A stretch of 64,000 bases of DNA from Candidatus Latescibacterota bacterium (GTDB lineage: Bacteria > Latescibacterota > UBA2968 > GCA-2709665), in assembly GCA_965222075.1 (NCBI GenBank), contig OZ244937.1, positions 3,712,001-3,776,000 on the forward strand. The letters run 5' to 3'. Below, piece after piece: positions 4,959 through 62,538 of the stretch (position 1 is the stretch's first letter; every line of letters begins with the position of its first letter). The notes beneath the pieces were generated by a model. The model was not told where the DNA came from. It did no database searches and was given only the letters and a program-made list of their open reading frames with translations. The position numbers were made by a program, and so were the translations under genes.

Positions 4959-7900
4959 TCAGTGCTGCCTGCCGTATCCACCGCCGCCGGGGGTGTTCAG
5001 GATCAGGCGGTCACCCGGGGCGACTTCGCAGCCGTCTACGGGGCCGAGGGTTTGTTTTTCACCCGAGGCGCGGTGGACAACCTGGGTTCCCGGCTTTCCC
5101 GGGTCTGCGCCGTGCAGGCCGTAGGGGCCTTCCTTCCGGTGCTGGGTGAGCACGGAGAGGGCCATTTCCTTCAGGAAGGTCAGTTCGCGCACGATGCCGT
5201 CTCCGCCGGCGTGGGCGCCCGCGCCGCCCGATCCTTTTCGCACGGCAAAGCGATCTATGCGGACGGGATAGCGGTGCTCTACGATTTCGGGGTCGGTGAT
5301 GCGGGTATTGGTCATGTGGCTGTGCACTGCGTCTGCGCCGGCAAAAGTGGGGCCGGCGCCGCAGCCGCCCCCTACGGTTTCGTAGTATCCGAACCCGGTC
5401 GTGCCGAAGAGGACGTTGTTCATGGTCCCCTGGCTGCATGCAACCAGTTCCAGGGCCTTCAGCAGGGTGTCTACCAGGCGCTGGCTGGTTTCCACGTTGC
5501 CTCCGACGACGGCCGGGGCGCGGGCGGGATCTTCCGGGAAGGGGGGGTTGAGGATGCCCGGGGGGATGTGCAGGGCGATCGGTTCCATGAAGCCTTCGTT
5601 GAGGGGCAGGGGGGCGTCTACCAGCAGGCGCAGCACGTAGATTACGGCGCTGCGGACAATGGCTGGGGTGGCGTTCAGATTGCCGGGGTGGACGCCGGCC
5701 GAGCCGGAGAAGTCGATGCTTGCGGAATCGCCTGTGATGTCGATGCGCACCTGCAGGGGCGACCCGTCGTCCAAGCGCTCCTGCGCACCGTAGCAGCCGT
5801 CCGGCAAGCGGGAGAGGGCGCTGCGCAGCCCCCGGTCGGCCTGGTTTTTGAGTGCGGCCATGTAGTAGAGGAGGGTTTTGGCGCCGTATTCGCAGGCGAG
5901 GTCCTGCAGGGCGTTGAGGCCCCGGTGGTTGGCGGCCAGGGCCGCGCGCAGATCGGCCAGGTTGTCGTCGACCGTCCGGGAGGGGAAGGGGGCGTTCTGG
6001 AGCATGTCGCGGACGGCGGTCCAGTCGGCGCGTCCGTCCCGGACGATGTACGAAGGCGGAATGACCACGCCTTCCTGGGCCAGGTTGGTAGCCGCAGGGG
6101 GCATCGATCCGGGCCGCATGCCGCCGACTTCGGCGTGGTGGGCGCGGCTGGCCACATAGCCGACGCATGGATCGCCGCCGGCATACACAGGCGTTATTAA
6201 GGTGATGTCCGGCAGGTGGGAGCCACCGAAGTCGGGGTGGTTGGTGATGACGGTATCTCCCGGCTTGAGGGAGAGATGCTCGCGCACTCGGCGCACGCAG
6301 AGGCCCAGCGCCCCCAGGTGCACCGGGATGTGGGGGGCATTGACGACGAGTTCGCCGTTGGCGTCCAGGAGGGCGCAGGAGAAGTCCAGCCGTTCCTTGA
6401 CGTTGGTGGAAAGGGCGGTGCGCTGGAGCATGGTGCCCATTTCCCGGGCGATGTTGCTCAGGTTGTGGGTGAACAGTTCCAGACGGACGGCTTCGGGACG
6501 GGCTTCCCGACCGCGGGTAGTCCGGGGCTGCCTGCGGTGGAGTACGAGGGTGGCGTGGCGGTCCACCCCCACCCCCCAGCCGGCGTCTACGAATACGGCG
6601 CTGTGCCGTTCGAAGATCAATGCCGGGCCCTGAAGCTGTGCGCCGGGCTTGAGGTCGGGCCGGTTGTGGACTGCGACCTCTGTCCACTTTCCCTGTACCC
6701 AGGTCTTTGTGTTTCCGCTGGGCAGGGCCTCATGGGCGGGTTGGGAGGTCTGTTCCCGCTCGGCGCCGGAGGCCCGCGAGGAGGCGATTACCCGGATGGA
6801 CTCCAGTTCGACCGGGCGGCCTTCCGGCTGGTGTCCGTAGAGGGTTTTGTAGGCAGCGGCGAAGGCGTCCGAGAGAGACGTCCCCGCTTCGTATTCCACG
6901 GTCAAGGGCGTGTCCTGGCCGATGAACCGCAGGTTGAGCAGCTGCCGGCGCACGACGACCTCCGCTTCGGGCACGCCTTCGGCAGCCACCTCCTGCACGG
7001 CTTTCCGGCCCAGGGCGTCGAGCCAGGCGGGGACATGGGCTTCGACCTCTTCAAGGAGGGCGAGCACCTGGCGTTCGACAAAGCGCTCGATTACCGCATG
7101 CCCGATGCCCAGGGCGCTGAGAAGGCTGGCGTCTGCGGGGACCAGCACGGTGTCGATGCCCAGCCGCAGGGCCACCCCGCAGGCGTGCTGAGCGCCCGCG
7201 CCGCCAAAGGCCACCAGCGCATAGGCTGCCGGGTCGTATCCCCGCTGGAGGGAGACACGCCGGATGGCGGCGGCCATACGTTCGTTGGCGATGTCTAAGA
7301 AGCCTTCGATCAGGGCTTCCGGGGCGGCCTCTTCTGCGGTTTCCTCGGCAAGCCGACGGCGCAGGGCGTCGAGCTGTTCCCGCGCACGCTCGGGGCGGAT
7401 CGGGATTTCGAAGCGCTCGGCATGGAGCCTGCCCAGGAGCAGGTTGACATCGGTCAGGGTCAGCGGCCCTCCAGCGCCATAGCAGGCCGGGCCGGGCCGG
7501 GCCCCTGCGCTCTGCGGGCCTACCTGGAGCCGGCCTTCGGCAAAGCGGCAGATCGAGCCCCCCCCTGCGGCGACGGTCTCGATGGCCAGGGCCGGGGCGA
7601 CTAAGTGGGCGTCGCCGACGTCGTGTTCAAAGACGTATTCGAAGTCCCCGTCGTAACGGGCCACATCTGTGCTGGTTCCGCCCATGTCGAACCCGATGAG
7701 CCGCTCGAAGCCGGCCCGCCGGCCGACCAGGGCCGCGCCGGCCACGCCGCCGGCCGGGCCGCTGAGGAGGCTGTCTTTGGCCTGGAAGGATTGGGTTTGA
7801 AGCAGGCCGCCGGTGCTGGTCATCACGTGCAGGGTGCCGCCGCGAATGGCGCCCTGCACCCTGCTCAGATAGTCTTTGATCACCGGCCCCAGGTAGGCGT

Positions 7901-26423: not shown

Positions 26424-28586
26424 TTATGGATTTGCCCGCAGCCATTTTCTTACAGCAGCGGCCTGCGGATGATTTGGGTTCAATTCGAGGACCTTTCTGA
26501 AAAGTGTCTTTGTTTTCTCGGTCTGGCCCAGTCTGCGATACGCAGTTCCCATATTCACGTAGGCGTGGACATCGTCGGGTTTGATGGCAAGAACCTTCTG
26601 GTAATACTGGATGGCTTTTTTATACTGTCCCAGCTTGTTGTATGCACTGCCCGTATTCAAATAGGCATCCACAAAGTGGGGGTCCAGAGCGCTGGCCCTC
26701 CGGAAGTAGTGAACGGCTTTTTCAACCTGTTCTGAATTGTAGTATATAACACCCATATTGTAATAGGCCCTGGCGTGATCGGGTTTCAGGTCGATGGCCT
26801 TCTGGTAGTAGTGTAGGGCTGTTTCGTCCTGGTCCAAACGGTAATAGGTATTGCCCATATTGTAATAAACATCGGCAAAGTCCGGATACAGGTCAATGGC
26901 CTTCCGGTAGTAGTGTAGGGCTGTTTCTTGCTGGCCCAGATCGCTATACGCATTGCCCATGTTGGAATAGGCCTCGGCGTGGTCGGGTTTCAGGTCAATG
27001 GCCTTCTGGTAGTAGTGTAGGGCTGTTTCGACCTGTCCTGATTTGTGATACATCATTCCAACGGAACTCCAGTGTCGCGGGTTTTTCGGGTTTGCCGCAA
27101 GGGCCTGCCTGTATGCGTTGTCCGCCCGCCCGGTTTGGTTTTGCACCCGGTAGTAGCTGCCGAGGGTTTCCCAGCCGTAGGATCTGGCATGGGCTGAGAG
27201 ATGGGTCCGCTCCAGGAGGTCGGCAAAACGGGCTTCGGCGGAGGCTTCCCTCGCATTCAGCCCGATCCACAGCAGGCTGTGCAGGGCTGCTGCTGTGCAG
27301 ACGAGGAGGCCTGTACGGATGAGGTGAGACCGGTTTTTCGTTTGACCGATCAGGGCCAGGGCCGCCCAGAGGGTGAGCGGCAGCCCCGGATAGGCAAAGG
27401 CATCCCAGTCGCGGAACGCGCCGATCTCCGGATTGGCAACCAGGGTGAAGAGCACGGGAAAGAGGGCCGCAGTGAAGAGAAAAGTGCGAGCCGGATCGTG
27501 GGTTGATCCGCCTCTTTGGAGCAGACACAGCACGATGAGGGCCGAGGGGGCAACAAGGAGATAGTGGTTGAAGAGGTCCAGCAGGTGGGCAGGTGAGAAG
27601 ATGCGGTAGTGGTACATCCCATCCGGTTGTGCCAGGAAGGGCAGGAGGTGCGTGCCCTTTGTGGTTTTTAAATAGGTCAAGGGATGGAAGCCGATGAGGG
27701 TGAAAATCAGCAGGACCAGGAGGGGGGCCGCAGCGAGCGAGGCGATGGCCTTGACCGTGGGCGATCCGGGAGGTTGAGGATCGCGGCTGGCGCTGACGTG
27801 CAGGATGGCCAGGACGATCAGGGAGGGCGCAAAGGCCACCAGGGTGAGGTGGAGCGAGACGAGGATGCCCAGCAGGAGGGCGGGCAGATAGAGGGGGCGC
27901 TGTCGTCTGAGGACCTGGACACCGGCGGTGAGGTAGAGGAGGACCGCAGGCAGGAGGATAGCGTAGGTTTCCACGTATCCGAAGAAGAGCTGGACGAAGC
28001 CCGGGGTGAGCAGGAAGCCCAGGATGAGGGTGCGCTCCGGGGGGGTGCGTCCAAGGGTGCGCGCAGCGGGCAGGGTAAGCAGGAGGTAGAGGCCTCCGGA
28101 GAGATAGCTGTAGATACGATAGGTAGACTCAGTGGTGTTCCAGATGGAACTCCCGAGCCGGTGAAATATTCCGATTCCCCAGTAGGTAAACGGGGCGTTG
28201 ACGCCTTTCCAGGTGTCCTGGGAGAGGAACAGGGGGAGGTCGCGCAGGAGGAGATAGCCGTCTCCCAGGAGGTGGACGGCCGACCGAAGGCCGAGGAAGG
28301 CGAGGCCACCTGCGACGAGGAGCAGGAGTGCAAAGCGATAAAACGATCCGGAGGATTCCCAGGGGTTGATGGCCGGGGGAAACTTTGTAAGCCCGTTGAC
28401 CACGCCCTGCTGAACCGCAGGGATCAAGAGCAGGACGCTTAAGATGACGAAAAGGCCCTGCACCCACATCGGGTAGAAGGCCAGCAGGTCCCCACCCCAT
28501 ACACAGAAGGGGCGCCAGTAGGCCGGCAGGAGGTGCAGGGCGAGGAAGGCGGCGACGACGATTTGGGATTTCGGATTTACACTCAA
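26424..28586 (-). CDS. Multi-pass membrane protein with C-terminal TPR array
   Basis: Many hydrophobic helices followed by 34-aa repeats (ETALHYYQKAIDLKPDHA). Confidence 0.85.
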   Translation of the reverse strand: MSVNPKSQIVVAAFLALHLLPAYWRPFCVWGGDLLAFYPMWVQGLFVILSVLLLIPAVQQGVVNGLTKFPPAINPWESSGSFYRFALLLLVAGGLAFLGLRSAVHLLGDGYLLLRDLPLFLSQDTWKGVNAPFTYWGIGIFHRLGSSIWNTTESTYRIYSYLSGGLYLLLTLPAARTLGRTPPERTLILGFLLTPGFVQLFFGYVETYAILLPAVLLYLTAGVQVLRRQRPLYLPALLLGILVSLHLTLVAFAPSLIVLAILHVSASRDPQPPGSPTVKAIASLAAAPLLVLLIFTLIGFHPLTYLKTTKGTHLLPFLAQPDGMYHYRIFSPAHLLDLFNHYLLVAPSALIVLCLLQRGGSTHDPARTFLFTAALFPVLFTLVANPEIGAFRDWDAFAYPGLPLTLWAALALIGQTKNRSHLIRTGLLVCTAAALHSLLWIGLNAREASAEARFADLLERTHLSAHARSYGWETLGSYYRVQNQTGRADNAYRQALAANPKNPRHWSSVGMMYHKSGQVETALHYYQKAIDLKPDHAEAYSNMGNAYSDLGQQETALHYYRKAIDLYPDFADVYYNMGNTYYRLDQDETALHYYQKAIDLKPDHARAYYNMGVIYYNSEQVEKAVHYFRRASALDPHFVDAYLNTGSAYNKLGQYKKAIQYYQKVLAIKPDDVHAYVNMGTAYRRLGQTEKTKTLFRKVLELNPNHPQAAAVRKWLRANP

Positions 28587-45690: not shown

Positions 45691-45949
45691 GTCGCTGCCC
45701 CCTCTCATCAGGATTGGCAATATGTATACTTGTGCTCTTTGCTGTAAACGCTTTCTGGATGAGGTATATTAGAAAGTTGTGGACGGGTACAGAAAATGAG
45801 CGTATCCTTGAGTATCAACAAAACCCAAAATCCCTCGGTCGAGGGAGATTCGAGACACCTTCCGGAGACGTCTTCACCTGAGCGCGCAGATGGCTCAGGC
45901 GGGCATCTGCGCCACCCTCCATCCCTCCGAAGAAAGGAGCACCAACCCT

Positions 45950-47002
45950 ATGCAAACCCTCTCCCAACAGGTCAGCCGTCCCGTCTACGACGACCTCGGA
46001 GCGCCCGAACCGATCGAACCGATCTTCGCCGAAGGCACCGACCCCACGCTCGAAGACTGGCAGGACCGGCGCGCGGTCCTGAAAGAACGCTGGAACGCGG
46101 TCCTGGGCACCCCCTCCCTGGACATTTTCGACACGCGCCCGGAAATCATCAACACCTTCGAACAGCCTGCATACCGGGCCACCGTATTCAAACAGCCCAC
46201 CGGACCTGACACCCGCCAGACCCTTCTGCTCATGGAACCCGGGCAGGCGGCCCATTCCCCCCGTCCCGGTATGGTCGTCCCCTTCTACCACCCGGACCCG
46301 ATGGCCGGCATCGACCTGGACACGCAGGAGCCCATCGCCGAAGACCGAAATATCCAGTTCGGCCGCCACCTCGTGCAGCAGGGAAACGTGGTGGTCTGCA
46401 CCGAAGCCTTCCCGTTCAACACCGTACCCGAACCCGCAGACAACAAAAGCTTTTCCTGGTGGCAGGCCGCCGCAGACAAACTGCTGAAAGACCATCCCAA
46501 CTGGACCGGCATCGCCAAACTCGTCTGGGACGCCAGCCGGGCCGTCGACCTCCTGCTGGACCAGCCCGACATCGACCGGAAACGAATCGGCATCATGGGA
46601 CACTCCCTGGGCGGAAAAATCGCCTTCTACACCGGCGCGCTCGACGAACGCATCCAGGCCATTGTCGCCTCCGACTTCGGCATGGGGTTCAACTTCACCA
46701 ACTGGGATGCCCCCTGGTACCTGGGCGACCAGATCCACCGCCCCGACTTCACCCTTGCCCACCACCACCTCCTGGCCCTGCACGCCCCCCGGTCCTTCTT
46801 CCTCTTCGGCGGCGAAGCGGACCGCCCTGCAACCTGGCAGTACATCAACGAAGCCAAAAAAGTCTACGCCCTCTACGGCAAACCGGACGCCGTCGGCTTC
46901 TTCGACCACGCCTCCGGCCACCGCCCCACCGGTGAATCGTTGAAAATCGCCTACCGCTGGCTGGCGGAACGGTTCGGGCTGGCGGAACAGCCGTGGGAGT
47001 GA
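45950..47002 (+). CDS. Alpha/beta hydrolase (dienelactone hydrolase/esterase-like)
   Basis: AAAGGAG RBS; RAVDLL, IGIMGHSLGGK, DERI, APR, GH. Confidence 0.85.
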   Translation: MQTLSQQVSRPVYDDLGAPEPIEPIFAEGTDPTLEDWQDRRAVLKERWNAVLGTPSLDIFDTRPEIINTFEQPAYRATVFKQPTGPDTRQTLLLMEPGQAAHSPRPGMVVPFYHPDPMAGIDLDTQEPIAEDRNIQFGRHLVQQGNVVVCTEAFPFNTVPEPADNKSFSWWQAAADKLLKDHPNWTGIAKLVWDASRAVDLLLDQPDIDRKRIGIMGHSLGGKIAFYTGALDERIQAIVASDFGMGFNFTNWDAPWYLGDQIHRPDFTLAHHHLLALHAPRSFFLFGGEADRPATWQYINEAKKVYALYGKPDAVGFFDHASGHRPTGESLKIAYRWLAERFGLAEQPWE

Positions 47003-47048
47003 CCCCTCCCCCGGCCCCTCCCCGAAACGGGGAGGGGAGAGCGTGCTC

Positions 47049-47210
47049 CTAAGAGGGTTGGGAGGTAGAGCGTTTCTTCAGTTGGGCCACGATACGACTC
47101 AGAACACCTTCAAAATTCTGTCTTATATCTTCATTCTGGATTCGTATAACCTTCAAACCACGAGATGCAAGAATACCATCACGTTCTGCAACAATATTTC
47201 TCTTCCTCAT
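47049..47210 (-). pseudogene. DUF559 copy with 231-bp in-frame internal deletion
   Basis: MRKRNIV is joined directly to AERDGILASRG; the catalytic core is missing. Confidence 0.8.
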
Positions 47211-47381
47211 CCTACAACCGTCACCTCCTCCGCCTTTCTCCCCCTTTCCTCTCAGGAAAGGGGGCCGGGGGGATAGGTCACTCAGTCCGATGGCTGGCAG
47301 AACAGTTCGGGCTGGCGGAACAGCCGTGGGAGTGACCCCTCCCCCAGCCCCTCCCCGAAACGGGGAGGGGAGAGGGTGCTC

Positions 47382-47774
47382 CTAAGAGGGTTGGGAGGTA
47401 GAGCGTTTCTTCAGTTGGGCCACGATACCACTCAGAACACCTTCAAGATTCTGTCTTATATCTTCATTCTGGATTCGTATAACCTTCAAACCACGAGATG
47501 CAAGAATACCATCACGTTCTGCATCGTACTTGACCTGCTGATGATGAACACCGCCATCCACTTCGATCACCAATCCAGCAGCATGACAGTAGAAATCCAC
47601 AATAAATCCATCAATGACCTGCTGCCGACGAAAGTGAAACCCCTCCAGTCGATTGGCGCGAAGACGTTCCCAGAGAATGCCCTCTTCTTCCGTCATCTGA
47701 CCACGAAGCATTCTTGCCCGCTTCACCTTATCCAGATCCACTCTCTGCCCAATAACAATATTTCTCTTCCTCAT
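47382..47774 (-). CDS. DUF559 (Vsr-like) endonuclease domain protein
   Basis: RARMLR..MT.EE..LW..LR, FRRQ..I..FIVDFYC, VIEVDGGVH, D.ERD..L...GLKVIR; GGAGGAGG RBS. Confidence 0.9.
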   Translation of the reverse strand: MRKRNIVIGQRVDLDKVKRARMLRGQMTEEEGILWERLRANRLEGFHFRRQQVIDGFIVDFYCHAAGLVIEVDGGVHHQQVKYDAERDGILASRGLKVIRIQNEDIRQNLEGVLSGIVAQLKKRSTSQPS

Positions 47775-47945
47775 CCTACAACCGTCACCTCCTCCGCCTT
47801 TCTCCCCCTTTCCTCTCAGGAAAGGGGGCCGGGGGGATAGGTCACTCAGTCCGATGGCTGGCAGAACGGTTCGGGCTGGCGGAACAGCCGTGGGAGTGAC
47901 CCCTCCCCCAGCCCCTCCCCGAAACGGGGAGGGGAGAGGGTGCTC

Positions 47946-48338
47946 CTAAGAGGGTTGGAAGGTAGAGCGTTTCTTCAGTTGGGTCACGATACCACTCAGA
48001 ACACCTTCAAGATTCTGTCTTATATCTTCATTCTGGATTCGTATAACCTTCAAACCACGAGATGCAAGAATACCATCACGTTCTGCATCGTACTTGACCT
48101 GCTGATGATGAACACCGCCATCCACTTCGATCACCAATCCAGCAGCATGACAGTAGAAATCCACAATAAATCCATCAATAACCTGCTGCCGACGAAAGTG
48201 AAATGCCTCCAGTCGATTGGCGCGAAGACGTTCCCAGAGAATGCCCTCTTCTTCCGTCATCTGACCACGAAGCATTCTTGCCCGCTTCACCTTATCCAGA
48301 CCCACTTTCTGCCCAATAACGATATTTCTTCTCCTCAT
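47946..48338 (-). CDS. DUF559 (Vsr-like) endonuclease domain protein, second intact copy
   Basis: Near-identical to 47382..47774; start MRRRNIV after the GGAGGAGG RBS. Confidence 0.9.
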   Translation of the reverse strand: MRRRNIVIGQKVGLDKVKRARMLRGQMTEEEGILWERLRANRLEAFHFRRQQVIDGFIVDFYCHAAGLVIEVDGGVHHQQVKYDAERDGILASRGLKVIRIQNEDIRQNLEGVLSGIVTQLKKRSTFQPS

Positions 48339-48405
48339 CCTACACCCGTCACCTCCTCCGCCTTTCTCCCCCTTTCCTCTCAGGAAAGGGGGCCGGGGGG
48401 ATAGG

Positions 48406-50820
48406 TCACTCATACCGCAGCGCATCCACCGGATTCGCCAGTGCAGCCTTCATAGACTGGGCGCCCACCGTCAGAAGGGCGATCCCCAGCGCCAGAACGC
48501 CGCATAGGATGAAGATTTCCGGTCCGGGATCAATCCGATACGCAAAGTCCTGAAGCCATCTGTTCATCACATAGTAGGCAGCCGGCCAGGCCAGCAGATT
48601 GGCAACCACAACAAGCTTTGCAAATTCTCCGGAAAGCAGGAGAACGAGGTTGGATACTGAAGCCCCCAGCACCTTACGGATACCGACCTCCTTGGTTCGC
48701 CGCGTTACGGAGAGAGACGCCAGCCCAAGAAGTCCCAGACAGGAAATCAGGATCGCAAACAGAAAGGTGTACCCCGTAATTCTGATCCATCGGTCTTCAT
48801 TCTGGTACTGGCGAACGAGATTATCTTCGAGGAAGGAATACTGAAACGGCTGGTCCAACGCGACAGCCTCCCACGTCTTCTTCAGAAAGGCGATAGTGCC
48901 GGCAATGTCCTCGGGCTGGATCCGGATCAGTACGAAAGGCCCATACGACCGGGGTCCAGTGTGCAGCAGCAACGGCTGAATTCCCCTGTGCAGGGAATCG
49001 ATATGGAAATCCCTTACAACGCCGATGACGGTCAGTTCTCCCAACTTCTCCCAGTCCAGATTTTTCAGGGTCTTCCCGACGGGATCCTCCCATCCGAGCA
49101 TTCCGGCCAGCTTCTCATTCACAAGCGCGAACGATTGTGGATCGGACGGGGATGTCGGTGAGAAATTCCGTCCTGCAACAAGCTGGATCTTCAGGGTCTC
49201 AAGATAATCGGGATCTACCCGGATGACCCGAACCCTTAGACGCTCGCCGTCTTCTTTTTCCATGCCTATGCCTCTGGATCCGGTCGTAAACGCCCGGTCA
49301 CTGATGGTTGCGCTGACAACCCGAGGAGATTTGGAAACTTCCACTTTGTACCGTTCGCTGACAGCGTCTGAATTCGCCACCATGGCAGGAACAACCACCA
49401 CCTGTTCTTCACGGTACCCCAGATCCTTTTCTCTCAGGTAGTTGAGCTGTTGGACCATCATCGCGGCGCTGATCATCAGTGCGATCGACAGAGCATACTG
49501 CACAACCACCAGCGCACGCGTACCCACGTTTCGCCCCCCAATCCGCACCTGGCCTTTGAGCACCTCTACCGCGTGGAGCCGGGGCAGTACTACGGCCGGA
49601 TAACTGCCCGCCGCAAGTCCTGCAATGCCCACCAGCCCCAGAAGCATGAGCGTTGTTCCCCAACTGTCCAAATAGGAAATGCTCAAATTCTTGCGCGCCA
49701 GATCATTGAAGACGGGCAGAAACATCTCGGCCAGAGCGATTCCCATCACCAGGGCAAACATGCTTAAAAGCAACGCCTCGCCCCAGAACTGCTGCATAAG
49801 CTGCCTCCGCTGCGCTCCCAGCACTTTTCGCATTCCCACCTCTCGTGCGCGTCCCACGGACCGGCCGACCGCCAGAGTCATATAATTGATACACGCGATT
49901 GCAAGCACCAGAAGCGCAAGCCCGGAAAGCAAGTAGGAGTAGACCACGTTGCCATTGGCTTCGTACGAACTTCTGACCTCAGAATTCAGGTAAACGTCCC
50001 GCAGCGGCTGGAGGCGCAGCAAAAACCCGTCCTCTGCGTCCCTCACGTGACCGTGCGTTTTGAACAACCCGATCCTGTCTCCCAGGTGCTTCTCGGCAAA
50101 GGGCGGAAACACCGCTTCCAAAGCCTCCGCATCCTGTCCTTCCACAAGCTGCACGTACATAGAGGCATTCCCACCACCCCAATCCGTATTCACAGCATAA
50201 TACCTGTGGTGTTCAATCGGGATCAGAAGACCGAATTTCAGGCTGGAGGTCTCGGGAACGTCTCGCATCACCCCCGTGACGGTAAAGTCCTGAGCTCTAA
50301 ACGACAGCGGTTTCCCCAGAGCCGCAGCGTAACCGTCTTCCAAATTTCCAAAGAGCTTGCGCGCGACCGTCTCGCTGATCACCACACCATCCGGCTGGCG
50401 CAGGGCCGTCGCAGGGTCTCCCGCCAGGAGTGGGAAGGAGAATATCTCCAGAAAGTCCGCGTCCACCAGGCCGAAGGATTCCCGAAAGGCGATCTCCTGA
50501 TATGAAACCTGCGTCCTGGAGCGCATAAATCCGCTCGCCCGGATAACACCCGGAAACTCCTCCCGTAGCGCTGCCGCAAGAGAAGCAGGGTGAAGCGTGG
50601 AAAACCTGACACTGCCATCAGGCCTGGTCTCCCGTACAATCACCCGAAAAATCCGGTCAGAATTCTCGTGGAAGGCATCGTACTGCCATTCGTGCCGGAC
50701 GAACAGGAAGATCAGAATACAACACGCAAGGCCGACCGCCAGTCCAAACACGTTGATGAACGCATACAGCTTCTGCCGGAGCACGTTTCGCACAGCCACG
50801 ATCAGGTAGTTTCGGAACAT
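48406..50820 (-). CDS. MacB/FtsX-type ABC permease
   Basis: MFRNYLIVAVRN...RAREVGMRK...RRTKEVGIRK...NPVDALRYE. Confidence 0.93.
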   Translation of the reverse strand: MFRNYLIVAVRNVLRQKLYAFINVFGLAVGLACCILIFLFVRHEWQYDAFHENSDRIFRVIVRETRPDGSVRFSTLHPASLAAALREEFPGVIRASGFMRSRTQVSYQEIAFRESFGLVDADFLEIFSFPLLAGDPATALRQPDGVVISETVARKLFGNLEDGYAAALGKPLSFRAQDFTVTGVMRDVPETSSLKFGLLIPIEHHRYYAVNTDWGGGNASMYVQLVEGQDAEALEAVFPPFAEKHLGDRIGLFKTHGHVRDAEDGFLLRLQPLRDVYLNSEVRSSYEANGNVVYSYLLSGLALLVLAIACINYMTLAVGRSVGRAREVGMRKVLGAQRRQLMQQFWGEALLLSMFALVMGIALAEMFLPVFNDLARKNLSISYLDSWGTTLMLLGLVGIAGLAAGSYPAVVLPRLHAVEVLKGQVRIGGRNVGTRALVVVQYALSIALMISAAMMVQQLNYLREKDLGYREEQVVVVPAMVANSDAVSERYKVEVSKSPRVVSATISDRAFTTGSRGIGMEKEDGERLRVRVIRVDPDYLETLKIQLVAGRNFSPTSPSDPQSFALVNEKLAGMLGWEDPVGKTLKNLDWEKLGELTVIGVVRDFHIDSLHRGIQPLLLHTGPRSYGPFVLIRIQPEDIAGTIAFLKKTWEAVALDQPFQYSFLEDNLVRQYQNEDRWIRITGYTFLFAILISCLGLLGLASLSVTRRTKEVGIRKVLGASVSNLVLLLSGEFAKLVVVANLLAWPAAYYVMNRWLQDFAYRIDPGPEIFILCGVLALGIALLTVGAQSMKAALANPVDALRYE

Positions 50821-50879: not shown

Positions 50880-50966
50880 GAACACCGGAGAAAGGGTGGA
50901 TGGGTCCGCCTTTCTCCCCCTTTCCTCTCAGGAAAGGGGGCCGGGGGGATAGGTCACTCATACCGC
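50880..50966. repeat. 87-bp direct repeat containing a solo right-end hairpin (copy 1)
   Basis: One mismatch to 51780-51866, exactly 900 bp away. Confidence 0.9.
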
Positions 50967-51006
50967 TGGCAGTCAGCGGTCAGGGCTCAGCGGAAATCGC
51001 TGCGTC

Positions 51007-51779: not shown

Positions 51780-51866
51780 GAACACCGGAGGAAGGGTGGA
51801 TGGGTCCGCCTTTCTCCCCCTTTCCTCTCAGGAAAGGGGGCCGGGGGGATAGGTCACTCATACCGC
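51780..51866. repeat. 87-bp direct repeat containing a solo right-end hairpin (copy 2)
   Basis: Overlaps the stop codon of permease 51854..54226. Confidence 0.9.
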
Positions 51867-54226
51867 AGCGCATCCACCGGATTCGCCGTCGCCGCCCGGA
51901 TCGCCTGCACGCTCACGGTCAACAGTGCGACAAACAGGGCCAGCCCTCCGGACGCTGCAAATACCCACCAGCCGATGTCGATGCGATAGGCAAAATCCTG
52001 CAGCCAACGGTCCAGGATGTAATACGCGATTGGCGAAGCCACCACAAAGGCGATAAGCACCAGCCGGGCGAAGTCCCTGGACAACAGGAGCACAATATTC
52101 TCCACCGTCGCCCCCAGCACCTTCCGGATGCCGATCTCCTTCGTCCGCTGCTGGGCCGTAAAAGAAGCAAGCCCGAACAGCCCCAGGCAGGCAATGAAAA
52201 TGGCCAGTCCCGAAAAAACCTCGAACACCCGGGCCATGCGCTGCTCGCTCTCGTAAAGCCGCAGGTAGTCCCCCTCCAGAAAGGAATACGCGAAGGGCCG
52301 ATGGGGCGCGAACTTCTCCCAGACCTGCCGCACGGCAGAAACAGCATCGGCCACGTTGCCGGGCTGCAACCGGACGGCAACATAAGAACGGCCCCAGCGG
52401 AGAAACGGAAGCACCAGGGGTTGGACCCGGTGGCGGAGCGACCCGTAGTGGAAGTCCTCCACAACGCCGATGACCCTGCCTTCTCGGCCTGTCAGCCTCA
52501 TTCGCTTGCCGACCGGCTCTTCCCACCCGAGCGCCGAGGCGGCAGACTGGTTGATGAGAAACGCCGTGGAGTCCGAGGCGAAGTCTCCGGGAGCGAAGTT
52601 CCGACCCCGGACGACCCGCAACCCCAGCGCTTCGGTATAATGCTCGTCGACCATCACGTAGGTAAGTGAGGTCTCCTCGTAGTTGGCAGGCTGCTCAGGC
52701 ACGAACCGCGTGGAATCAAAGCGGTGGCCCGGCAGGCCCTCGGTAACCGAGGCCACAGCCACCTGCGCAAGCGCTCCGAGCCGCTCCCTGAATGCAGCAA
52801 CCTGCCTGCCCAGACTCCTGGCCCCATGCACCACAAGCACGTGTTCTTTATCGAACCCGAGCCGCTTGTGCTGCATATAGCGGAGTTGCTCGTGAACAAC
52901 CAGCGTGCCGATGAGCATTCCAATAGATATGCAGAACTGCGCCACAACCAGCCCGTTGCGCAGCCGGTCCCCGCCGAAGCGACCTGCAACACGTCCCCTG
53001 AGCACCTGCACAGGCCAGAAGGACGACAGGAAAAATGCCGGATACATCCCTGCCAGCACGGCCACCGCCGTCACAATTCCGCCCAGCGCCAGAACCGCGA
53101 ACGGCGAACTCAGGCTTCCGGTTGTCAGCTGTTTGCCGACAAAGCCGTTGAGGAACGGCAACCCCAGTTCGCTCAACCCCAGCGCCAGAACCACCGCCAG
53201 CGCCACATACAGCGACGACTCGACGAGAAACTGGCGAACGAGCTGCGCACGCTGGGAACCCAGAACTTTCCGAACACCCACCTCCCGGGCGCGGTTGGTC
53301 GAACGCGCTGTGGACAGGTTCACAAAATTGATACACGCCAAAAGCAGGATAAAGACGGCAACAAGAGAAAAAATATAAACGTTCAAAATATCGCCGGTCG
53401 GCTCCAGTTCCAACTCCAGATGCGAGTGCAGATGAATATCCGTCAACGGCTGCAACAGGAACCGGCTGTAGCCTCCTGCACGGGAAAAACGCTTCTCCAG
53501 TCCGCGACGCTCGACATGTTCCCGGAGCTTCGTCTCCACCCCGGACGCTTTTGTCCCCTCCCTCAAAACCACATACGTATAGACGGTGGCCGACCCCCAA
53601 CCCTTCTGTCGTCGTTCGACGATCGGAAGCGTTCTCAAAGGTGCGAGAAAATCGAAGTGAAAATGGGACTGGAGAGGAAACCCCCTCACCACGCCCGTGA
53701 CGCGCAGAAGCGTACCGTCGTTGAGTTCCAGCGGCTGTCCGAACGGGTCCTGGTCCCGGAAATACCGCCGCGCCGTCTCTTCCGTAATCACAACCGCATC
53801 CGGATCGCGCAGCGCCGTTTCCGGATCTCCCTCGACGAAGGGCGCGGTGAACACATCGAAAAAACCCTCCTCCACATAAAAAAAGTCACCTTCAATCACG
53901 TACTCCCGGCCGTGGCGCAGCGTCCGGCGCTCACGCCTCATACGCACCGTCCGCTCCACCTCCGGTAAATCCGCCAGCGCTTCAGCGACGGGAATAGGCC
54001 CTTTAGGAATCGTCCATTCATTGTCGCCGTAGCGAGCGTCCCACAGAACGCGATAGATCCGGTCCGCCTTTTCGTGGAACCGGTCGTAGCTCACCTCGTC
54101 CAGCACGAACAGCAGGATCAGGATGCAGCACGCCATCCCCACGGCCAGGCCCAGAATGTTGATGGCCGAATAGACCCGGTGCCGCAGCAAATTCCGCACC
54201 GCAACCTTCAGATCATTCTTAAACAT
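51854..54226 (-). CDS. MacB/FtsX-type ABC permease
   Basis: MFKNDLKVAVRNL, LACINF, RAREVGVRK, QRTKEIGIRK, NPVDALRYE. Confidence 0.93.
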   Translation of the reverse strand: MFKNDLKVAVRNLLRHRVYSAINILGLAVGMACCILILLFVLDEVSYDRFHEKADRIYRVLWDARYGDNEWTIPKGPIPVAEALADLPEVERTVRMRRERRTLRHGREYVIEGDFFYVEEGFFDVFTAPFVEGDPETALRDPDAVVITEETARRYFRDQDPFGQPLELNDGTLLRVTGVVRGFPLQSHFHFDFLAPLRTLPIVERRQKGWGSATVYTYVVLREGTKASGVETKLREHVERRGLEKRFSRAGGYSRFLLQPLTDIHLHSHLELELEPTGDILNVYIFSLVAVFILLLACINFVNLSTARSTNRAREVGVRKVLGSQRAQLVRQFLVESSLYVALAVVLALGLSELGLPFLNGFVGKQLTTGSLSSPFAVLALGGIVTAVAVLAGMYPAFFLSSFWPVQVLRGRVAGRFGGDRLRNGLVVAQFCISIGMLIGTLVVHEQLRYMQHKRLGFDKEHVLVVHGARSLGRQVAAFRERLGALAQVAVASVTEGLPGHRFDSTRFVPEQPANYEETSLTYVMVDEHYTEALGLRVVRGRNFAPGDFASDSTAFLINQSAASALGWEEPVGKRMRLTGREGRVIGVVEDFHYGSLRHRVQPLVLPFLRWGRSYVAVRLQPGNVADAVSAVRQVWEKFAPHRPFAYSFLEGDYLRLYESEQRMARVFEVFSGLAIFIACLGLFGLASFTAQQRTKEIGIRKVLGATVENIVLLLSRDFARLVLIAFVVASPIAYYILDRWLQDFAYRIDIGWWVFAASGGLALFVALLTVSVQAIRAATANPVDALRYE

Positions 54227-57192: not shown

Positions 57193-57889
57193 ACATCAAA
57201 CTCCCCGTCACCTCCTCCGCCTTTCTCCCCCTTTCCTCTCAGGAAAGGGGGCCGGGGGGATAGGTCACTCAGTCCGCTGGCTGGCAGAACAGTTCGGGCC
57301 GGCGGAACAGCCGTGGGAATGACCCCTCCCCCAGCCCCTCCCCGAAACGGGGAGGGGAGAGCGTGCTCCTAAGAGGGTTGGAAGGTAGTTGGCGCGAAGA
57401 CGTTCCCAGAGAATGCGCTCTTCTTCCGTCATCTGACCACGAAGCATTCTTGCCCGCTTCACCTTATCCGGATCCACTCTCTGCCCAATAACGATATTTC
57501 TCTTCCTCATCCTACACCCGTCACCTCCTCCGCCTTCCTCCCCCTTTCCTCTCAGGAAAGGGGGCCGGGGGGATAGGTCACTCAGTCCGCTGGCTGGCAG
57601 AACAGTTCGGGCCGGCGGAACAGCCGTGGGAATGACCCCTCCCCCAGCCCCTCCCCGAAACGGGGAGGGGAGAGGGTGCTCCTAAGAGGGTTGGCGAGAA
57701 GGCGTTCCCAGAGAATGCCCTCTTCTTCCGTCATCTGACCACGAAGCATTCTTGCCCGCTTCACCTTATCCAGGTCCACTCTCTGTCCAATAACGATATT
57801 TCTTTTACTCATCCTGCACCCCTCACCTCCCCCGCCTTTCTCCCCCTTTCCTCTCAGGAAAGGGGGCCGGGGGGATAGGTCACTCATAC
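57193..57889. mobile_element. DUF559 element cluster: solo right end plus two core-deleted units (313 and 302 bp)
   Basis: Right ends finish at 57270, 57583 and 57885; deletions of 251 and 262 bp relative to the 564-bp unit. Confidence 0.85.
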
Positions 57890-61534: not shown

Positions 61535-62538
61535 ACATCAAACTCCCCGTCACCTCCTCCGCCTTTCTCCCCCTTTCCTCTCAGGAAAGGGGGCCGGGGG
61601 GATAGGTCACTCAGTCCGCTGGCTGGCAAAACAGTTCGGGCCGGCGGAACAGCCGTGGGAATGACCCCTCCCCCAGCCCCTCCCCGAAACGGGGAGGGGA
61701 GAGCGTGCTCCTAAGAGGGTTGGAAGGTAGAACATTTCTTCAGTTGGGTCACGATACCACTCAGAACACCTTTTGGCGCGAAGACGTTCCCAGAGAATGC
61801 CCTCTTCTTCCGTCATCTGACCACGAAGCATTCTTGCCCGCTTCACCTTATCCAGATCCACTCTCTGCCCAATAACAATATTTCTCTTCCTCATCCTACA
61901 ACCGTCACCTCCTCCGCCTTTCTCCCCCTTTCCTCTCAGGAAAGGGGGCCGGGGGGATAGGTCACTCAGTCCGCTGGCTGGCAAAACAGTTCGGGCCGGC
62001 GGAACAGCCGTGGGAATGACCCCTCCCCCGGCCCCTCCCCGAAACGGGGAGGGGAGAGCGTGCTCCTAAGAGGGTTGGAAGGTAGAGCGTTTCTTCAGTT
62101 GGGTCACGATACCACTCAGAACACCTTCAAGATTCTGTCTTATATCTTCATTCTGGATTCGTATAACCTTCAAACCACGAGATGCAAGAATACCATCACG
62201 TTCTGCGTCGTATTTGACCTGCTGCTGATGAACACCGCCATCCACTTCGATTACCAATCCAGCAGCATGGCAGTAGAAATCCACAATAAATCCATCAATG
62301 ACCTGCTGCCGACGAAAGTGAAACCCCTCCAGCCGATTGGCGCGAAGACGTTCCCAGAGAATGCCCTCTTCTTCCGTCATCTGACCACGAAGCATTCTTG
62401 CCCGCTTCACCTTATCCAGATCCACTCTCTGCCCAATAACAATATTTCTCTTCCTCATCCTACAACCGTCACCTCCTCCGCCTTTCTCCCCCTTTCCTCT
62501 CAGGAAAGGGGGCCGGGGGGATAGGTCACTCATACCGC
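61535..62538. mobile_element. DUF559 element cluster: solo right end, one core-deleted unit (355 bp), one intact unit (564 bp)
   Basis: Right ends finish at 61612, 61967 and 62531; same left flank (acatcaaactccccgtcacc) as 57193. Confidence 0.85.
62066..62458 (-). CDS. DUF559 (Vsr-like) endonuclease domain protein, third intact copy
   Basis: Near-identical to 47382..47774. Confidence 0.9.
   Translation of the reverse strand: MRKRNIVIGQRVDLDKVKRARMLRGQMTEEEGILWERLRANRLEGFHFRRQQVIDGFIVDFYCHAAGLVIEVDGGVHQQQVKYDAERDGILASRGLKVIRIQNEDIRQNLEGVLSGIVTQLKKRSTFQPS

Follow-up and report, generated by a model that had tools for sequence, protein, structure and literature searches.

The exact 6-bp direct repeat, TACCGC, that brackets a three-unit repeat array in the genome of a Candidatus Latescibacterota bacterium is native coding sequence on both sides and not the crossover site of an integrating element. 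The array lies between the convergent 3' ends of an alpha/beta hydrolase gene and an ADOP/FtsX-type permease gene, within the 64-kb stretch of contig OZ244937.1 that was analyzed here (the window, whose first base is position 1; all positions are those of the window unless the genome is named). Its full units each carry a gene for a DUF559 nuclease between two hairpins, L and R, which follow a junction segment, J. An initial annotation had taken the arrangement for an integrative element that crosses over at a TACCGC core and supplies its target genes with new 3' ends. Our results point to another history, in which a one-off microhomology duplication probably created the unit and ordinary homologous exchange at the R hairpin and permease tail then spread it and added or removed copies. 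The features of the locus are as follows.

45890..47002, plus strand: alpha/beta hydrolase gene, 370 aa, with Pfam GCE_fung, AXE1 and DLH matches.
46952..46957, plus strand: left TACCGC, the Tyr-Arg codons (...GCC TAC CGC TGG...) of the AYRWLAEQF motif and the left edge of the array.
46952..47284, plus strand: unit 1, 333 bp, made up of hydrolase tail, L hairpin, DUF559 remnant and R hairpin (blastn).
47001..47041, plus strand: L hairpin copy 1, GACCCCTCCCCC.GCCCCTCCCC GAAA CGGGGAGGGG; more copies at 47334-47374 and 47898-47938.
47285..47848, plus strand: unit 2, 564 bp, full length, the blastn query against the genome.
47285..47335, plus strand: J segment of unit 2 (GTCCGA and the hydrolase-tail copy up to TGA); its counterpart in unit 3 is at 47849-47899.
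47382..47774, minus strand: intact DUF559 gene, 130 aa, of Vsr-like PD-(D/E)XK nuclease fold (PF04480, E 2.1e-35).
47849..48412, plus strand: unit 3, full length at 564 bp, with 97.9% identity to unit 2 (blastn).
47946..48338, minus strand: another intact DUF559 gene, of 130 aa, with 95% identity to the one at 47382..47774.
48346..48412, plus strand: R hairpin copy 3, CCCCCTTTCC TCTCA GGAAAGGGGG ... GGGGGGATAGGTCACTCA; other copies at 47218-47284 and 47782-47848.
48406..50820, minus strand: ADOP/FtsX-type permease gene, 804 aa, with TIGR03434, MacB_PCD and FtsX matches.
48413..48418, plus strand: right TACCGC, the antisense of the permease Arg-Tyr codons CGG TAT (...CTG CGG TAT GAG TGA; ...ALRYE-stop).

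The layout itself is as the initial annotation had described it. TACCGC is present at 46952-46957 and 48413-48418, and the bracketed stretch, 46952-48412, measures 1461 bp, or 333+564+564. The internal junctions read GTCCGA in the same register, at 47285 and 47849; the predicted recombinant junction, CACTCATACCGCTGGC, is found at 50955-50970; and a Glu-stop, GAG TGA, closes both convergent genes (47000-47002 on the plus strand and 48406-48408 on the minus strand). As TACCGC has a frequency of 2.4e-4 per base genome-wide (15 occurrences on the plus strand of the window), its recurrence in exact register at the right boundary is not due to chance. The 16-mer recombinant junction occurs six times in the genome, every time within a copy of the repeat.

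The 564-bp unit runs in the order J segment, L hairpin, minus-strand 130-aa DUF559 gene and R hairpin. The J segment, unit positions 1-51, begins with 6 nt that vary by copy, and its other 45 nt copy the hydrolase end including the stop. Unit 1 corresponds by blastn to unit positions 3-239 and 470-564; the deletion of positions 240-469 has taken out most of the DUF559 gene and left aa 85-130 at 47052-47189. As single-stranded DNA both hairpins fold well, the L hairpin at -14.2 kcal/mol (z -2.7) and the R hairpin at -15.4 kcal/mol (z -3.1), and the 22-nt outer ends of the two regions form inverted repeats that are 82% complementary. As had been claimed, stop codons overlap the hairpin termini: the leading GA of L hairpin copy 1 completes the hydrolase stop, TGA, and the terminal TCA of R hairpin copy 3 is the antisense of the permease stop. 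The DUF559 frame of unit 3, unlike that of unit 2, also continues without a stop in the upstream direction, across the R hairpin and as far as the permease tail, which yields an open reading frame (ORF) of 159 aa with its ATG at 48425 (47946-48425, minus strand); this ORF is probably an artefact of the ORF finder, though it shows that the hairpin is translatable.

The origin of J bears on the nature of the 6-mer. The last 17 codons of the hydrolase (46952-47002) are the parent of the repeated segment. Hydrolase orthologues occur in 5 of the 22 genomes of the family, and those of G008 and G005, from another genus (64-67% identity), end in ...AYTWLANQF(D/N)LEEQ(A/S)W(E/V)L-stop with no hairpin past the stop. 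A metagenome scan with the hydrolase gave 14 loci at 53-66% identity, in none of which the permease neighbor is kept; 13 distant homologues in this range were examined and all 12 with a complete tail have the AY.WLA(E/K).F... ending. None of these metagenomic homologues has a hairpin abutting the stop, and one has a C-rich motif about 45 nt downstream. Over the full span of 53-67% identity, orthologues free of such a hairpin end in AY(R/K/T)WLAEQF..W... Since the tail is conserved in homologues free of the hairpin, the left TACCGC is the Tyr-Arg of a conserved motif, and these comparisons mark the hydrolase tail as ancestral, the source of the J copy and not its recipient. The right boundary runs straight into the permease, so the native gene end that an integration should have displaced to the far side is absent; with no displaced hydrolase tail beyond the array, the element did not bring the hydrolase tail.

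The other parent of the junctions is the permease end. The sequence TCACTCA-nnCCGC is the antisense of that end (R-x-E-stop), and the junction variants TACCGC and GTCCGC match the tail variants RYE-stop and RTE-stop, the second of which occurs as a permease tail in the sister species (G001; the genome under study is G000, and other G numbers are related genomes). At the inter-unit junction, 13 nt of permease tail run into hydrolase tail, and the 6-mer is all that the two parents share. With this parentage, J is a chimera of the two flanks of this locus. The claim that the crossover fell inside the 6-mer therefore holds: in junctions of the TACCGC type, permease tail lies to its left (TCACTCA), hydrolase tail to its right (TGGC...), and TACCGC is common to both. 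Head-to-tail units in which the right flank is joined to the left flank via a shared 6-mer are the pattern of a microhomology tandem duplication.

Comparison with the sister species bears on the same question. At the orthologous place, G001 has the order hydrolase-TGA-L hairpin-R hairpin-TCACTCA-CTCCGC-permease, that is, one unit without DUF559, in which the 6-mer is TACCGC beside the hydrolase and CTCCGC beside the permease. This single-unit arrangement implies that the overlap of hairpin and stop is older than the array and that the two 6-mers need not match. The empty target with a single TACCGC that was predicted for relatives did not appear; what G001 has in its place is this gene-less unit. 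Synteny of hydrolase and permease is kept only in G001, and G004, G005 and G008 are without the permease neighbor. In G004 (locus L003, G004:C1:4893461-4897549, reverse strand 2590-2790), only the first half of an L hairpin lies beyond the hydrolase orthologue, and after it comes a piece from within an FtsX-type permease gene (..EIGIRKVLGA.. antisense); this junction is rearranged. The contigs of four public runs over 46500-48900 break at the repeats, and none spans the array or joins the hydrolase to the permease, a result that carries no information on circles or empty alleles.

The repeat is also present elsewhere in the 5.36-Mb genome, where unit 2 (47285-47848) matches 40 segments by blastn. 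Full-length units number three, two at this locus and a third at 61969-62532. The unit of J, L hairpin, DUF559 and R hairpin is found at four further places, and two of these four other arrays (A2 and A3) end at an ADOP permease tail, like the one at this locus. Solo R hairpins occur at three distant genome sites in addition to those given here.

50905..50970, plus strand: solo R hairpin, then TCACTCA-TACCGC-TGGCAGTCAG (a J ending after 16 nt), between ATPase and permease genes.
51805..51860, plus strand: solo R hairpin directly against the stop codon of the following permease paralogue (51854-54226).
57205..57886, plus strand: array A2, in which an R hairpin is followed by two units that have lost most of DUF559, up to a permease tail (TACCTT).
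61547..62532, plus strand: array A3, in which an R hairpin is followed by a deleted unit and a full one, up to a permease tail (TACCGC).
62066-62458, minus strand: intact DUF559 gene in the full unit of array A3.
Genome 3830013-3830193: short array.
Genome 3838405-3840265: opposite-orientation family, about 92% identical.

These copies do not share one core. Among eleven 57-nt R-J-L junctions in G000, five have TACCGC (TCACTCA-TACCGC-TGGC...), four GTCCGC and two GTCCGA, and the junction 6-mers in G001 are GCTTGC and GCCCGC. TACCGC stands on both edges of only one of five arrays, the one at this locus. The left edges of A2 and A3 lie inside the R hairpin, with the solo R hairpin first, and not at TACCGC; that of A4 lies just upstream of the R hairpin core, and that of the fifth array lies in J, about 21 nt before TGA. 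The expectation of the same core at every boundary and junction was thus disappointed. Units that have lost the gene show internal deletions with several different end points and short shared bases at the joints, and DUF559 is intact in 3 of roughly 20 units. At the orthologue of A2, G001 has a single R hairpin beside the permease stop and G000 has that hairpin plus two units; the difference amounts to whole units between R hairpins, which is the outcome expected of homologous exchange at the hairpin. The G001 orthologue of the A3 left flank gave two 29-nt matches only and was not usable.

Signs of such exchange are also found in the permease tails. The last 33 nt of the permease (48406-48438) are identical in two paralogues: compared with p3760, neither p3763 nor p3774 has a difference in the final 33 nt, as against 23 and 25 in the preceding 60 nt, and the hairpin-less p3472 encodes the same ANPVDALRYE-stop with 9 of 33 nt different. 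Among seven close permease paralogues, the four with an R hairpin end in TAT GAG TGA, and the three without one end in GAATGA, GAATAG and GAGTAA. The tails are species specific, being AGCGCATCC in four of four cases in G000 and AACGCATCC in three of three in G001, which indicates concerted evolution later than the species split. At the permease, the 3' end of the gene does come from the repeat block, through homologous replacement and not through site-specific integration. The proposal that the element provides the 3' end of its target is therefore correct for the permease, where the last 33 nt of three paralogues have been overwritten, and unsupported for the hydrolase with its ancestral tail. 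Relatives that differ by whole units and flanking homology that is homogenized are both what unequal homologous exchange would leave. The hydrolase may have been touched as well: it reads WLAERF (GAA CGG, 46970-46975) where G001, G004 and most distant homologues read WLAEQF, and the J copy of unit 3 carries the identical CGG (47867-47872), which suggests, at the level of sequence, exchange between array copies and the live gene tail.

The common GAGTGA of the two genes had been regarded as the terminus of the element. Only part of this stands, in that the GA of each TGA belongs to the hairpin GACC; the GAG lies outside the dispersed terminus, (T)GACC. Hairpin termini across the order start with (T)GACC, and unit matches in other families begin at positions 49-50 and end at 559-562. 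Varied bases precede the GACC termini at nine DUF559 loci of relatives, and in 49 distinct ends from 40 loci of relatives the base before GACC is G in 23, T in 13, A in 8 and C in 5. Because these bases vary, the GAG is the genes' own Glu codon and the GA alone is derived from the repeat. At 3 of the 49 hairpin ends, a sample too small to speak of enrichment, a TGA arises that terminates an ORF of 100 codons or more; one of the three is that of the G004 hydrolase orthologue, and GAG precedes none of the other stop-forming ends. Glu is conserved as the last or next-to-last residue in both flanking protein families, a crude stop-to-stop count has GAGTGA at the end of 80 out of 7526 long ORFs, and the hydrolase here ends one codon earlier than its relatives (..W-E-F/L-stop), at the hairpin. 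The shared Glu-stop is hence real, with separate causes: a Glu conserved in each family and a GA that comes from the hairpin.

These observations fit a simple sequence of events. An illegitimate exchange between the two 6-mers, by replication slippage or break repair, would have occurred once, in the common ancestor of the genus, and would have duplicated everything between them, creating J as 13 nt of permease tail joined to hydrolase tail. Spread, gain and loss of units and homogenization could then have followed by ordinary homologous exchange, in the form of gene conversion, unequal crossing-over or unit circles that pop out and re-enter. The exchange would draw on the homology of the 56-67-nt R hairpin and the adjoining permease tail, so that the last 33 nt of permease paralogues are converted along with it, and a dedicated core-specific recombinase would not be required. 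Tandem duplication-amplification with microhomology joins, followed by unequal homologous exchange, has been studied in Salmonella and E. coli. The likeness is close: units are head to tail, the microhomology junction joins flank to flank, unit number varies between relatives, and a target-site duplication and a dedicated enzyme are both absent. The present case differs in that the amplified unit is a repeat-bounded, selfish-looking cassette and in that the junction-bearing unit is found at several other loci, where it homogenizes the 3' ends of paralogues.

Several points weigh against this explanation. The first duplication event is deduced and was not seen, and no truly empty hydrolase-permease junction was found among the relatives examined. 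The internal junctions of this very array read GTCCGA and not TACCGC, which calls for a later change or for units that returned from another locus. One G000 array and several G001 copies start near (T)TGCGGAACAGCCGTGG, about 21-23 nt before TGA; such a near-constant left end hints that one terminus is preferred, and pure homologous exchange offers no explanation for this. In one junction variant the arms on either side of the 6-mer have a weak inverted symmetry (6 of 9), and the dispersal of single hairpins across the order needs another mechanism.

The hairpins themselves belong to a wider family. Matches to the unit were found in 34 of 41 related genomes; outside the genus these are either the DUF559 gene or hairpins of 40-50 nt at 90-98% identity, and the hairpin pattern matches up to 295 times in one genome. 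Read on the minus strand, the L hairpin has a C stem followed by a loop, a G stem, a second loop, another G stem and TC, and the pattern of one C stem and two G stems, CCCCTCCCC GTTT CGGGGAGGGG C(T/C) GGGGGAGGGG, occurs seven times on the minus strand of the window. This architecture is that of the purine-motif intrastrand triplex class (TMECO, BoxC and PIT), and triplex formation is predicted. The published TMECO pattern, CCCTCNCCC N3-6 GGGNGAGGG N3 GGGNGAGGG, has no match on either strand of the window or the genome, because the stems here read CCCCTCCCC or CCCCCTTTCC. Holder et al. (2015, PMC4666352) describe such motifs as highly conserved, dispersed and tied to local rearrangement and intergenic deletion, a likeness to the repeats seen here. 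They report that they found no transposase or integrase remnants, and no mobility genes, near TMECO motifs; here, in contrast, a DUF559 gene lies between inverted copies. If that account extends to the present repeats, triplex-type hairpins would make the region prone to breaks and slippage, and break-prone structured repeats would account for the original microhomology duplication as well as for the many internal deletions of units. Local tandem duplications of hairpin and spacer adjoin DUF559 genes in relatives. One such locus (L015, G018:C1:1568917-1572193, reverse strand 1070-1420 and 1790-2210) has, on one side of the DUF559 gene, at least five tandem copies of a 71-nt unit made up of a hairpin and a 29-nt spacer ending ...CACTGTGA, and on the other side a duplicated block of about 200 nt with two hairpin types.

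The best of the alternatives gives the DUF559 product an active part. The protein matches PF04480 with 121 bits against a cut-off of 20.6, and thus belongs to DUF559; it also matches PDB 3hrl (E 7e-21), and the only other family matched, MTES_1575, falls below its cut-off. PMC3424549 and PMC12907096 group DUF559 with Vsr-like PD-(D/E)XK nucleases. Among the three intact G000 copies and one G001 copy, pN/pS is 0.16-0.45 and the core is nearly invariant, which indicates that all three copies are under purifying selection; the product is probably functional, and its action on the repeats is putative. In a homing-like process, DUF559 would cut the structured hairpin or a hairpin-only site, and repair from a filled copy would proceed via the R hairpin and the gene tails; the cassette would then spread actively, and J would be the fossil of a circular or tandem intermediate. 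Purifying selection on the gene speaks for this, as do its GC content (47% versus 59% for the genome), the GACC-type hairpins on both sides of the gene in seven of nine DUF559 loci examined from relatives, the clustering of microhomology deletions and duplications here, and a fold that is shared by Vsr and a group I intron homing endonuclease (PMC3424549; PDB 3hrl). However, the nuclease has no known cleavage site, most units lack the gene (3 intact among roughly 20) and yet still vary in number, and plain homologous exchange yields every pattern seen. We regard such homing as unlikely, though worth keeping in mind. A broader form of the idea, which we hold to be similarly doubtful, is that the DUF559-triplex hairpin cassette is selfish and active and travels in the form of a permuted unit (circle or tandem), its nuclease breaking the structured repeat to start the process. 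If so, the unit would carry patches of its last neighbors and re-enter wherever an R hairpin follows a permease gene, each move would rewrite the last 11 codons and the stop of the recipient, so that the element would bring its own repair patch for the gene end, and this would be a route to mobility without transposase or integrase.

Transposition of a miniature inverted-repeat transposable element or insertion cassette, bounded by inverted repeats (GAGTGACC...GGTCACTC) and mobilized by a transposase in trans, is very unlikely. The inverted termini of 22 nt and the dispersal of hairpin units among related genomes would suit it; however, no copy in the genome ends precisely at the inverted repeats with a target-site duplication, every copy carries J and gene tails or sits in arrays, the four bases outside the termini are inverted and not direct, and there is no transposase nearby. 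Least credible of all is integration at a 6-bp TACCGC core by a recombinase encoded elsewhere, which the exact bracket at this locus, the attP-like CACTCA-TACCGC-TGGC junction and the gene tails within the unit had suggested, and which fails on the undisplaced ancestral hydrolase tail, the CTCCGC of the sister species, the single bracketed array of five, the variable 6-mer, inverted arms that agree at an inconsistent 4-6 of 9-10 positions by variant, and the absence by Pfam of any recombinase or transposase family among the 18 ORFs of 37.6-64 kb, where the unit encodes DUF559 alone.

Some further observations concern related repeats and the surroundings of the array. One intergenic repeat, of about 225-390 nt, is composite. 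Its parts are ...GCAACGAACGTCAACCTGCCGC, an R hairpin, a pseudo-permease tail of 45 nt that lacks 1 nt in its stop region, and an end rich in AT, ...TTAAACCCAATAAA...CAATCTGAAAG. It has three copies in G000, all outside the window (genome 1713100-1713345, 1770030-1770265 and 3039990-3040230), and at least six in G001 (loci L029-L032, L035 and L037); several of the G001 copies hold 23 nt of hydrolase tail and an L hairpin, and one carries the sole full DUF559 unit seen in G001. Beside an R hairpin in G001 (locus L025, G001:C112, reverse strand about 5100-5260), a permease has collapsed, its first 20 or so codons being fused out of frame to the last few (..ALRTE-stop), a sign of frequent deletion among paralogous transporter loci. 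Over 46800-48600, a scan for consensus promoters and terminators found no site of either kind, and an Rfam search at a permissive threshold gave only sub-threshold chance matches to long hairpin families. A tandem repeat at 26693-27035 (period 102 nt, 3.4 copies, 75% matches) is unrelated to the array.

The array also resembles several other known systems. Some islands and phages that target tRNA genes are integrative elements with the 3' end of their target in the attP. As with these, the copies of gene 3' ends in the repeated block keep host frames closed and an attP-like junction is present; the array differs in having no integrase, no constant core and no displaced gene end. In REPtrons, a Y1/HUH transposase gene (RAYT) is flanked by inverted repetitive extragenic palindromic (REP) sequences. 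The array shares with these and with the mosaic arrays known as BIME short structured repeats past stop codons, a mosaic array structure and inverted flanks around one small gene; the flanked gene here encodes a PD-(D/E)XK DUF559 nuclease and not a Y1/HUH transposase, and the array is not a REPtron. There is also a likeness to Vsr-like homing endonuclease genes such as that of I-Bth0305I, in that a small nuclease of the same fold group is an optional insert with a patchy distribution, although the cassette lacks an intron or intein context and a known target and its gene is bracketed by dispersed hairpins. The structure of I-Bth0305I (PDB 3r3p) is placed with DUF559 in PMC3424549. To judge by its listing, a full-text literature search on DUF559 surfaced no description of the gene together with flanking hairpins.

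In summary, we provide evidence that a short direct repeat can look like an att core when exact copies of it bound a repeat array, and that orthologous gene tails, the locus of a sister species, other arrays and the variation among junctions are the comparisons that separate the one from the other. The mechanism that we favor is an ordinary one, and the element on which it would act is poorly understood. In this genus, the DUF559-hairpin cassette spreads with pieces of its neighbor genes, its copies differ between relatives by whole units at hairpins, and it drives concerted evolution of the 3' ends of paralogous transporters. Should DUF559 prove to initiate these events, it would be a partner enzyme for the triplex-type repeats found in many bacteria.

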